Shown here one piece after another: positions 146 through 2,083 of a stretch of DNA of 7,747 nt. This DNA is from a virus (lineage: Duplodnaviria > Heunggongvirae > Uroviricota > Caudoviricetes). The stretch's first letter is position 1. Each line of letters opens with the position of its first letter. The notes beneath the pieces were generated by a model that was not told where the DNA came from, searched no databases, and saw only the letters and a list, made by a program, of their open reading frames with translations. The translations under genes were made by a program, and so were the position numbers. The stretch covers positions 1 to 7,747 of the IMG/VR virus record IMGVR_UViG_2537561714_000016; one strand, given 5' to 3'.

Positions 146-2083
146 TCAGCCGCCGGACGCAGTTCCGTAGTTCACACCGGTGATCACAGCCACCGCCGCG
201 GTACGGCGACGACGCCAGTTGATCCAGCGCTCCGCACGGATGGCCACGCTGCCGGTCTGGAACATGGAGACCAGCTCCACCGGTGACGGTGTGCTGCTGT
301 CGCTGGTCGGTTCAGACTGCATCTCCAGTGACGCTTCACGGGACATATCCACCGCCACACCACCGTCATCCGCCAGATAAATATCCGGCGCATTCACCAG
401 TACCAGCTGGTCACCCACATACTGGGAGACAATCACCGGCAGCCCCTGGAAGGTCCCGCCCAGCAGGGTCATGTCCGGATATTCCTTCTGCCCCAGCGCA
501 TTTTTACGCATGGACAGCGCCAGGGCATTCGTGCTGGACATCAGCCAGACCGCACCGGTGGGCTGCAGATTTGCCGTCACAAACTGGCCAAACGCGGCCT
601 CGGCATCCGCATCCGGGTTACCGGTTGATGCCGTGCCCTTCACATCATGGGTGATGGACGCCGGGGAGACATCTGCCACTGCGGCTTTTTTCGGGTCCAC
701 AAAGTCTGTATCCAGACGCGCCACCACCGCTTCCGCCAGCGCATTACGGACCAGTGCATCAGCAGCCGGACTGGAAAAACGGATCAATTCTTCCGTCAGT
801 ACCGCAATGGCCGACACCTTCGCATGACTGAAGGTGATGGATTCAAAATCAAACTTCGTCAGGGGTTTTGCCTTACCCTCACCCACCCAGCCGGCAGCAC
901 CGCCGGACACCTGGGCGTGCACACGGATATTGAATGGCACCTGACGAAGTGCAGGGATCCCGCCCTGACCAAATCGCCCGATAATGGTCTGCGGACGCAG
1001 GTAATCAATAAAGTCCTGTGCGTATTCCTGATATTCAGACAGGCTGCCTGCCCACTGCGGATCCGTGGTGGTCCCCGCGCCCACTGCCGATTTCAGGACA
1101 TGATGCAGACGACTGTCATCCGGATACTGACGACGGGCCACTTCCAGGGCTTCAGATCGGACGCCTTTAGCCGCAGCCAGCGATTTGGCAAAGCGGGCGA
1201 AGCCAATCCCCTTATCCAGTTTCTGCTCCACACGGATCACCGGCGCAGAAGCCACCGCGGCCACATTCCCGTTACCGGCCTGTTTCACCGGCTGCGCCGT
1301 GGCGGCCTTACCGGCTTCCAGTTCACGCAGGCGCTTCAGGTGCGCATCCACCTGACGGATTTCCGCTGCGGTGTTGTCGTAATGCTCTTCCTCCTCCACA
1401 TCCAGCGTGCGCCCTTCCTCTGCGGCTTTGGTCATGACCTCCTCAAGGGAGGCTGCCAGCGCTGCACGCTTGTTTTCAAAACTTTTAATCTGTTCGCCAA
1501 TATTCATTATGGTCTTTTCCTTATGAAAAACGGTTGTTGACTGTGCCGCAGCGCCGGCAGAAGATGCGATTTTCACCACCGGTTTCCGGTTGCCGGACGC
1601 GGCAGAAAACGGGCGGTCGTAAGATTTAATGGTCCGGATGGTGCATTCCGCATTCGCGGGCACGGTGACGGCAGACACCTCCATCAGTTCCCAGCGCAGA
1701 AAATGCAGTCCGCCTCCGTCCAGAAAGGTGTATTCATGGGGACGGAAGCCCACGGACAGCCCCCTGACCAGCCCGGTCTTAATGGCCGCCCAGACCTCAT
1801 CCAGCCGGGCAGCCAGTTGCGACGGCATATCCGGTACGGGCTTCACCAGTGTTGCCGTGATTTCCAGCCCTTCGCTGACCCGGCGCACCGTACACTGCCC
1901 CACCGGGCGGGAATGGTCATGCTGCCAGAGAAACGGGATCGCACTGCCAAACTCCGCGCCCTCCGGCTCCAGGATGTCACCATCCCGATCCGGAGAAGGC
2001 GTTGACGCAATCCCGGTGATCACCCGTTCATCCTCACTGAAGGATTTCACCGTCAGCAGGGAACAGGCCCGTTTAAGAGTCAC
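146..2083 (-). CDS. Fused prohead protease - scaffold-like coiled coil - HK97-fold major capsid protein
   Basis: 645 codons. N-terminal ~160 aa carry HK97-family prohead protease (S78/U35) hallmarks (FLWQHDHSRPVG, GLSVGF, ELMEVSAVTVPANAE). Middle is a charged, helical segment (EQIKSFENKRAALAASLEEVMTKAAEEGRTLDVEEEEH, LKRLRELEAGKAA). C-terminal ~370 aa resemble HK97-type major capsid proteins. GTG start at 2081-2083 sits 5 nt after a perfect AGGAGG. Confidence 0.85.
   Translation of the reverse strand: MTLKRACSLLTVKSFSEDERVITGIASTPSPDRDGDILEPEGAEFGSAIPFLWQHDHSRPVGQCTVRRVSEGLEITATLVKPVPDMPSQLAARLDEVWAAIKTGLVRGLSVGFRPHEYTFLDGGGLHFLRWELMEVSAVTVPANAECTIRTIKSYDRPFSAASGNRKPVVKIASSAGAAAQSTTVFHKEKTIMNIGEQIKSFENKRAALAASLEEVMTKAAEEGRTLDVEEEEHYDNTAAEIRQVDAHLKRLRELEAGKAATAQPVKQAGNGNVAAVASAPVIRVEQKLDKGIGFARFAKSLAAAKGVRSEALEVARRQYPDDSRLHHVLKSAVGAGTTTDPQWAGSLSEYQEYAQDFIDYLRPQTIIGRFGQGGIPALRQVPFNIRVHAQVSGGAAGWVGEGKAKPLTKFDFESITFSHAKVSAIAVLTEELIRFSSPAADALVRNALAEAVVARLDTDFVDPKKAAVADVSPASITHDVKGTASTGNPDADAEAAFGQFVTANLQPTGAVWLMSSTNALALSMRKNALGQKEYPDMTLLGGTFQGLPVIVSQYVGDQLVLVNAPDIYLADDGGVAVDMSREASLEMQSEPTSDSSTPSPVELVSMFQTGSVAIRAERWINWRRRRTAAVAVITGVNYGTASGG

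Follow-up and report, generated by a model that had tools for sequence, protein, structure and literature searches.

The window analysed here is a stretch of 7,747 nucleotides (nt), positions 1 to 7,747 of the IMG/VR virus record IMGVR_UViG_2537561714_000016, from a member of the Caudoviricetes. It represents the late-gene region of a phage or prophage of the long-tailed lambdoid, Shiga toxin (Stx) type, and over 94% of its length it shares 98-99% identity with Stx2a_WGPS6 (Pankowvirus) and with phages 2851 and 1717. All the relevant genes lie on the minus strand, in the order endolysin, Rz/Rz1, KilA-N, HNH endonuclease, terS (3805..4368), terL (2147..3808) and a single open reading frame (ORF; 146..2083) in which a prohead protease, a scaffold-like segment and a major capsid protein are fused. 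This fusion ORF is the subject of the present analysis. Comparison with its relatives suggests that it serves head assembly in a Pankowvirus-type, Stx-converting phage or prophage of the long-tailed lambdoid group, and that it most likely consists of two nested in-frame genes, a reading in which we have fair confidence. The full-length ORF and its parts are listed below; pLDDT stands for the predicted local distance difference test and aa for amino acid positions.

146..2083, minus strand: full-length ORF of 645 codons plus the stop codon (148..146), 69.1 kDa, with protease, linker, scaffold (delta) and major capsid protein in a single frame
2081..2094, minus strand: main translation start, with AGGAGG at 2094..2089, a spacer of 5 nt and GTG at 2083..2081
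1625..2035, minus strand: prohead protease domain, aa 17-153, of the Peptidase_S78/HK97 type with an assemblin fold
1508..1624, minus strand: linker, aa 154-192, predicted to be disordered (pLDDT 24-44), hypervariable and indel-rich, with an internal ribosome-binding site at its 3' end
1091..1507, minus strand: scaffold-like (delta-domain-like) region, aa 193-331, helical in the AlphaFold2 model
149..1090, minus strand: predicted mature capsid protein, aa 332-645, 33.1 kDa, HK97 fold
1088..1093, minus strand: candidate maturation cleavage site Lys331/Ser332, placed by analogy

The protease and capsid parts of the protein are both recognised by profile searches. Pfam Peptidase_S78 (PF04586) matches aa 48-152 with 34.7 bits (cutoff 21) and Pfam Phage_capsid matches aa 386-635 with 54.8 bits (cutoff 24.2). 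NCBIfam TIGR01554, the HK97 major capsid family, matches aa 204-584 with 78.8 bits (cutoff 27.5); position 3 of its profile aligns at aa 204, and the profile starts at about aa 202. PHROG 617 matches the whole protein end to end (E 1e-261). The narrower prohead protease equivalog, TIGR01543, scores 46.4 bits, below its cutoff of 59, and no ClpP or S49 family is present among the Pfam, NCBIfam and PHROG matches of the fusion protein. Membership in NCBIfam NF045541, the 'prohead protease/major capsid protein fusion protein' family, was considered and rejected, as the match reaches 54 bits where 525 are required, and it covers aa 48-287 only. NF045541 is a different fusion lineage, and the existence of such a model indicates that this kind of protease/capsid fusion has already been curated.

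The protease domain has a herpesvirus-assemblin-like fold. His55 (in the motif FLWQHD; codon 1921..1919) and Ser110 (GLSVGF; codon 1756..1754) are invariant in all 105 homologues compared, which range from 38% to 78% identity. These two residues are putative counterparts of the catalytic pair in HK97 gp4.

An AlphaFold2 model built on the same 105 homologues has a mean pLDDT of 85.7, and an earlier one built on a shallow alignment (15 sequences, 73-78% identity) was discarded with a mean pLDDT of 40. The accepted model is compact over aa 17-153, disordered over aa 154-189, of low confidence over aa 332-350 and adopts the HK97 fold from there up to the C-terminus. Within the scaffold region it shows a helical hairpin formed by aa 195-223 and aa 229-262 (window 1501..1298; pLDDT 95-97) and three short helices at aa 293-331. 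Using the family profile, aa 196-260 align to residues 4-68 of 9gyi_B, a solved HK97-like head protein (E 1.3e-9), indicating that the helical hairpin corresponds to the delta (scaffold) domain; a search of the PDB with the single sequence returned weak capsid matches only. The capsid protein thus has both the HK97 fold and a helical N-terminal domain preceding it. HK97 is cleaved at K103/S104. By analogy, cleavage of the protein from the window probably takes place after Lys331, which would yield a mature protein of 33.1 kDa. This position is K or R in 103 of the 105 homologues and is followed by the conserved residues A/S-A-V-A-A-G-T-T-T-D, and it is at this candidate site that the low-confidence segment of the model begins.

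An earlier note on this DNA, made from the letters and an ORF listing, had described an uninterrupted ORF of 645 codons with a GTG start and a strong Shine-Dalgarno (SD) sequence, holding protease, scaffold-like and capsid domains in one frame. This description is borne out by the AGGAGG located 5 nt upstream of the GTG, by Pfam, TIGR01554 and PHROG 617, and by the AlphaFold2 model. Two of the checks that the note had proposed agree with it: mapping with hidden Markov models placed Peptidase_S78 and Phage_capsid above their gathering cutoffs, and structure prediction recovered an N-terminal protease domain, a helical scaffold and the HK97 fold. The note did not give the strand of the ORF, which according to the ORF listing is the minus strand.

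Protease, scaffold-like segment and capsid domain form a single conserved reading frame, and the fusion is genuine and of long standing. Of 5,426 complete E. coli genomes, 1,255 carry the ORF without interruption, at up to 7 places per genome. Homologues of 643-650 aa with 73-78% identity are found in Salmonella, Klebsiella, Enterobacter, Serratia, Pantoea and other genera, and full-length fusions with 41-51% identity in Rhizobium, Methylobacterium, Brucella, Haematobacter and Caulobacter. Fused homologues therefore span the Alpha-, Beta- and Gammaproteobacteria at 41-77% identity, and full-length homologues reach down to 38-41% identity. Most of the 150 best cluster representatives (clustered at 50% identity) are 630-680 aa long. 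Among related loci that contain both parts, 98 of 104 are fused and 6 are split, the split loci representing four independent lineages.

The fusion is not new, and the same gene is already annotated in public records. The closest phage records (Stx2a_WGPS6, 2851 and 1717) name its product 'major head protein/prohead protease', and for Stx-converting and related prophages the fusion as such is ordinary annotation. Fusions of protease and capsid protein have also been described in Arthrobacter phages (PMC5513430), in agreement with the remark in the earlier note that such fusions are known but little characterised. The head module is among the most widespread capsid modules in the Enterobacterales and is carried by many E. 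coli O157 prophages, including phages that carry Shiga toxin genes.

Inside the ORF, at the junction of linker and scaffold region, there is a second set of translation start signals.

1514..1522, minus strand: internal SD-like motif AAGGAAAAG, with its AAGGA core 10 nt upstream of the internal ATG
1505..1507, minus strand: internal in-frame ATG (Met193), proposed start of a nested capsid precursor
146..1507, minus strand: proposed nested gene encoding scaffold (delta) and capsid protein, putatively 453 aa and 48.3 kDa, with frame and stop codon common to the full-length ORF

An in-frame internal start with a ribosome-binding site is conserved among the relatives. All six split relatives begin their capsid gene at the residue aligned with Met193. 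For example, the capsid gene of Diaphorobacter (L025) begins with MKTIIEQI and its start codon shares the ATGA overlap with the stop codon of the protease gene, as is typically seen where translation is coupled; that of Brucella (L026) begins with MATYAEQI behind a GGAGG. The protease and capsid genes of these two relatives are parted by a one-base frame difference (L025:3440-3600 and L026:6560-6640), and the fused and split forms are easily interconverted by a single-base indel. The standalone capsid homologues P0197, P0226, P0257, P0258 and P0266 likewise start at positions equivalent to residues 193-196 of the query. The TIGR01554 capsid profile, too, begins close by, at about aa 202. Met193 is invariant in the enterobacterial alignment, and the 25-30 residues preceding it are hypervariable and full of indels. 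A Met is found near position 193 in 131 of 145 fused cluster representatives; the 14 exceptions, inspected by eye, are mostly V, with one L. The corresponding codon is ATG, GTG (L033) or TTG (L019) in all the fused DNA examined.

Every lineage has an SD-like, purine-rich motif 6-10 nt ahead of the internal start. The amino acids that it encodes vary between lineages and its codon phase shifts, from AAG GAA AAG in the window to AAA GGA AAC, CAA GGA AAA, CCC GAG GAG GGC, AAG GAG GCA and AAC AGG AGA AAG in the relatives. That the motif is kept despite these changes points to selection on the RNA rather than on the protein. A duplex with the anti-SD of -5 kcal/mol or stronger is predicted for 97% of 60 distinct junctions, compared with 14% of 1,884 other in-frame ATG, GTG and TTG codons of the same ORFs; as the 60 junction sequences are phylogenetically related, the P value of this enrichment is not a true probability. 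The segment from -30 to +30 around the internal start falls between the 0.2nd and 4th percentile of GC content in 23 of 23 sequences tested, including those from genomes with 62-67% GC, and it is among the least folded segments of the ORF in most of them.

At the main start, the equivalent signal in the relatives is GGAGG followed by ATG in the same place, and a strong GGAGG is present in nearly all of them. The SD duplex amounts to about -10 kcal/mol at the main start versus about -6 kcal/mol at the internal one, and the mean cost of unfolding is 10.8 kcal/mol at the main site versus 7.7 kcal/mol at the internal site. The lower opening cost of the internal site roughly offsets its weaker SD. 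The two starts therefore look comparable on these crude measures, and as a result the ratio of their products is not predictable. Another candidate for an internal start, Met217 (ATG 1435), was rejected: its GAGGAG lies just 2-3 nt upstream, a spacing that is too short, and the position is M in 74 of 146 representatives.

The identity of the domains and the conservation of the fusion and of its internal start signals are seen directly in the sequences, from which we infer that both starts are used, at some ratio, and that the product is cleaved at particular sites. Initiation at the GTG (2083) would produce a 69-kDa polypeptide in which an HK97-type serine protease is followed by a flexible linker, the helical delta (scaffold) region and an HK97-fold capsid protein, and initiation at Met193 (1507) would yield a scaffold-capsid precursor of 48 kDa, the counterpart of HK97 gp5. 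Because the scaffold and capsid parts are common to both products, the two would co-assemble into the prohead. Each full-length copy would take one capsid position and carry one tethered protease inside, and tethering would take the place of a stand-alone protease gene together with the C-terminal peptide that targets its product. Once assembly is complete, the protease would sever the linker and trim off the scaffold region, probably cutting behind Lys331, which would leave a capsid protein of about 33 kDa. The number of protease copies would then follow from the relative use of the two starts, rather than being 1:1 with the capsid protein. We think it reasonably probable that the same applies to the HK97-type protease-capsid fusions across the Proteobacteria, which about one quarter of complete E. 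coli genomes carry: they would be nested two-product genes in which the upstream start makes a minority of protease-tethered subunits, with the dosage set translationally and possibly tuned by a conserved RNA element on either side of the internal start.

Several considerations weigh against a nested pair of genes. The case for translation from Met193 is a comparative one throughout, and the compared sequences are phylogenetically related, so that the counts given above are not independent. The internal SD is only moderate, with about -5.6 to -6.2 kcal/mol, which places it at roughly the best 10% of positions in an ORF. The strong GGAGG at the main start of nearly all relatives may mean that the full-length product is abundant, and ribosomes that arrive from the main start while elongating would hinder initiation at the internal one. 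The AT-rich, unstructured junction could partly reflect a linker rich in Lys, Asn and Thr. The internal start signals could also be relics of a two-gene ancestor, although the hypervariability of the adjoining linker argues otherwise. Finally, the cleavage site at Lys331 is assigned by analogy to HK97.

Some of these considerations are shared by the alternative that was put forward in the earlier note. Worked out in full, it would have one start and one 69-kDa polypeptide, with every subunit bringing its own protease and scaffold, about 415 proteases per T=7 prohead which all excise themselves, and the internal ATG and SD as leftovers of a two-gene arrangement. We consider this possible but unlikely. 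The strong AGGAGG or GGAGG at the main start of almost all relatives and the moderate internal SD speak for it, and the retention of the fusion in 98 of 104 loci fits a covalent link that is itself selected; the Gifsy-2 tripartite capsid gene is reportedly a single composite gene as well. However, it requires relic start signals to resist decay next to a hypervariable linker. The internal start codon and its SD are conserved over 41-77% identity while the residues just upstream are not, every replacement of the ATG in the DNA that was read is a GTG or TTG, the SD persists through changes in amino acids and codon phase, and the junction is the minimum of the ORF for both GC content and structure. 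Moreover, about 415 copies of a 21-kDa protease and a 15-kDa scaffold region would, by a rough estimate, take up well over half of the interior of a T=7 prohead. The 'single strong SD' of the earlier note does not hold, since a second conserved SD and ATG lie within the ORF at Met193, and its single start is not supported. What stands of its view of delivery is that the protease can enter the prohead covalently, on a capsid subunit, and has to cut away itself and the scaffold; that it does so in 1:1 stoichiometry is not supported, given the start at Met193.

Two further elements flank the internal start and have been examined in the enterobacterial clade.

1544..1560, minus strand: linker island that is invariant at the nucleotide level, with the consensus GCTGGCGCTACAGCA and here the sequence GCCGGCGCTGCGGCA, able to pair with 1452..1469
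1452..1469, minus strand: arm downstream of the island and complementary to it, GCGTGCAGCGCTGGCAGC (codons 206-211), where synonymous diversity is low

The 15-nt island is near-invariant, synonymous positions included, among 33 sequences of 68-78% protein identity. The ratio of observed to expected synonymous diversity is 0.33-0.48 at codons 160-178 and 0.56-0.66 at codons 199-212, compared with a mean of 1.03 (standard deviation 0.15), and the two regions of lowest synonymous diversity in the ORF are thus those on either side of the internal start. The minimum-free-energy fold pairs 1544..1560 with 1452..1469 (z = -2.7), and 80.7% of cells are paired in this register versus 17-47% when the partner strand is slid. 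Covariation between the two arms was no better than in shuffles by every measure, and RNAalifold retained just a 4-bp local hairpin, not the long-range helix. The cause of the conserved element may be an RNA helix, a recombination joint or something else.

These observations bear on a second alternative, in which the internal start makes nearly all of the capsid protein and the full-length fusion is rare, with its level tuned by RNA structure. The internal ribosome-binding site would be enclosed by a helix of 1544..1560 with 1452..1469, and this helix would either work as a switch or be processed in the manner of an RNase III site, so that the two cistrons become uncoupled. Low synonymous diversity on both sides of the start, a near-invariant island within an otherwise hypervariable linker, a predicted fold that pairs both arms, and more paired cells than in slid registers would all suit it. 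The lack of covariation beyond shuffles and the loss of the long-range helix in RNAalifold, in an element examined only in the enterobacterial clade, speak against it; in addition, the arms are rich in Ala and Gly codons, and complementarity can come from such composition. On balance we judge a mechanism of this kind improbable. The remaining alternative, a frameshift or assembly error joining two genes, which the earlier note had wished to see ruled out, could draw on the six split loci and on the ease with which a single-base indel interconverts the two forms, but it is effectively refuted, and excluded for practical purposes, by the recurrence of the same ORF in inducible Stx phages and in 1,255 complete E. 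coli genomes that were assembled independently, by the prevalence of fused loci, by full-length homologues down to 38-41% identity and by the existence of a PHROG family of full length.

A nested pair of genes, if true, would explain how a covalently fused protease avoids sitting on every subunit, and it would provide a simple and testable case of translational control over protease dosage in capsid assembly. It would also mean that annotation as a single coding sequence misses the most abundant precursor of the virion. We found no description of a nested start in these fusions in the literature searched, a scope that does not include Effantin et al. 2010 (Virology 402:355) and Duda et al. 2013, and in the same literature we found no report on the fusion protein from Stx-phage proteomics. 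Virion mass-spectrometry data exist for phi330, a Pankowvirus relative (PRIDE PXD061229, PMC12502783), where coverage of the fusion protein is not reported.

The surroundings of the gene show several other features. One of them lies immediately upstream.

2105..2122, minus strand: terminator-like hairpin and T-run between the terL stop codon and the SD of the fusion gene

The hairpin GAACCGCTGCGGCGGTT and its T-run (window 2095-2122, minus strand) are located about 10 nt upstream of the AGGAGG. The same hairpin and T-run recur ahead of the enterobacterial homologues, with ...GGFF... as the in-frame translation of that stretch. The late operon that holds the hairpin is Q-antiterminated.

Downstream of the fusion gene, the annotated relative encodes an ORF of 61 aa, a portal protein of 859 aa, a head-tail adaptor, a head closure protein and tail genes. 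The portal gene (L001:6355-8934 in Stx2a_WGPS6, just past window position 1) follows the capsid gene instead of separating terL from the protease. A Rhizobium relative (L017) likewise has terL, fusion gene, small ORF and portal in this order. Only aa 54-382 of the 859-aa E. coli portal match Phage_portal, and about 460 C-terminal residues are without a family match; the Rhizobium portal has 453 aa and is followed by a separate ORF of 288 aa. The small gene between capsid and portal in Rhizobium (L017:7991-8335) matches the Acb2/Tad1 hairpin domain (Pfam PF24729, E 5e-13), the mark of a family of anti-CBASS/Thoeris sponges. The 61-aa ORF that occupies the equivalent slot in the Stx phage has no Pfam match, and window positions 1-70 are the 5' part, about 23 codons, of the small ORF in this slot.

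Further upstream, terL is interrupted by IS629 in the Stx2 phages 1717 and Stx2a_F349, in the region equivalent to window 2147-3808, and given this insertion some carriers of the head module are likely packaging-defective. An HNH endonuclease gene (4658-5023, minus strand) is located just upstream of terS, and the equivalent gene is so annotated in the record of the relative. An HNH endonuclease is the usual partner of HK97-type cos terminases. A divergent DUF3950 ORF is found at 5065-5250 on the plus strand.

Among known systems, long-tailed Stx-converting phages and lambdoid prophages of O157, namely Stx2a_WGPS6 (NC_049945, gp67), phage 2851 (gp17) and phage 1717 (genus Pankowvirus), have essentially the same gene. 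The window shares 98-99% DNA identity with them and the same gene order of terS, terL, fusion gene, small ORF and portal. Nothing material differs in their records, which give a single coding sequence and are silent on processing and on an internal start.

There is also a parallel with gp4 and gp5 of HK97. Both proteases are of the Peptidase_S78 family (TIGR01543-like), both capsid proteins adopt one fold behind a helical scaffold domain at the N-terminus, and the assembly logic, an encapsidated protease that removes the scaffold domain, is probably common to both. HK97, however, has two separate genes, with the portal gene upstream of the protease gene, whereas here there is one frame and the portal lies downstream. 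The HK97 protease is reportedly targeted by its C-terminal region, and the region equivalent to it is here a covalent linker.

The classical case of such a composite gene, and one with experimental work behind it, is the tripartite capsid gene of Gifsy-2, likewise a lambdoid phage of enterobacteria, in which a single ORF is said to run from a protease through a scaffold-like middle part to the major capsid protein. The Gifsy-2 protease is reportedly ClpP-like and related to lambda C; in contrast, the protease of the fusion studied here is of the S78/assemblin type and not ClpP-like. The fusion gene thus works like the Gifsy-2 gene, but its protease part is not homologous.

Nested protease and scaffold genes are represented by lambda C/Nu3, by UL26/UL26.5 of herpes simplex virus 1 (HSV-1) and by gp17/gp17.5 of HFTV1, the last from ribosome profiling (bioRxiv 10.64898/2026.09.13.751334). 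They resemble the arrangement proposed here in that an in-frame internal start gives rise to a C-terminally coincident assembly protein without protease, and in that the full-length form brings the protease into the procapsid. The start signals at Met193 suit such a design. Internal initiation has been demonstrated experimentally in these three pairs, whereas at Met193 it is deduced from the comparisons above. They also differ in their nested product, which consists of scaffold only, with the capsid gene being separate; here it would consist of scaffold and capsid protein, because HK97-type phages already have the scaffold fused to the capsid protein. If the nested start is used, the design of lambda C/Nu3 and herpesvirus UL26/UL26.5 would be extended to the capsid protein itself.

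Genes annotated as a 'major capsid and protease fusion' in actinobacteriophages (Arthrobacter clusters AM, AU and AN, and Rhodococcus phage RRH1) are of the same single-gene kind and are called unusual in the respective genome papers. They come from other hosts and lineages, the likeness is one of description, and no mechanism is given for them. A nested gene pair would join HK97, with its scaffold fused to the capsid protein, lambda and the herpesviruses, with their protease nested with the scaffold, and the tripartite genes as variants of one design.

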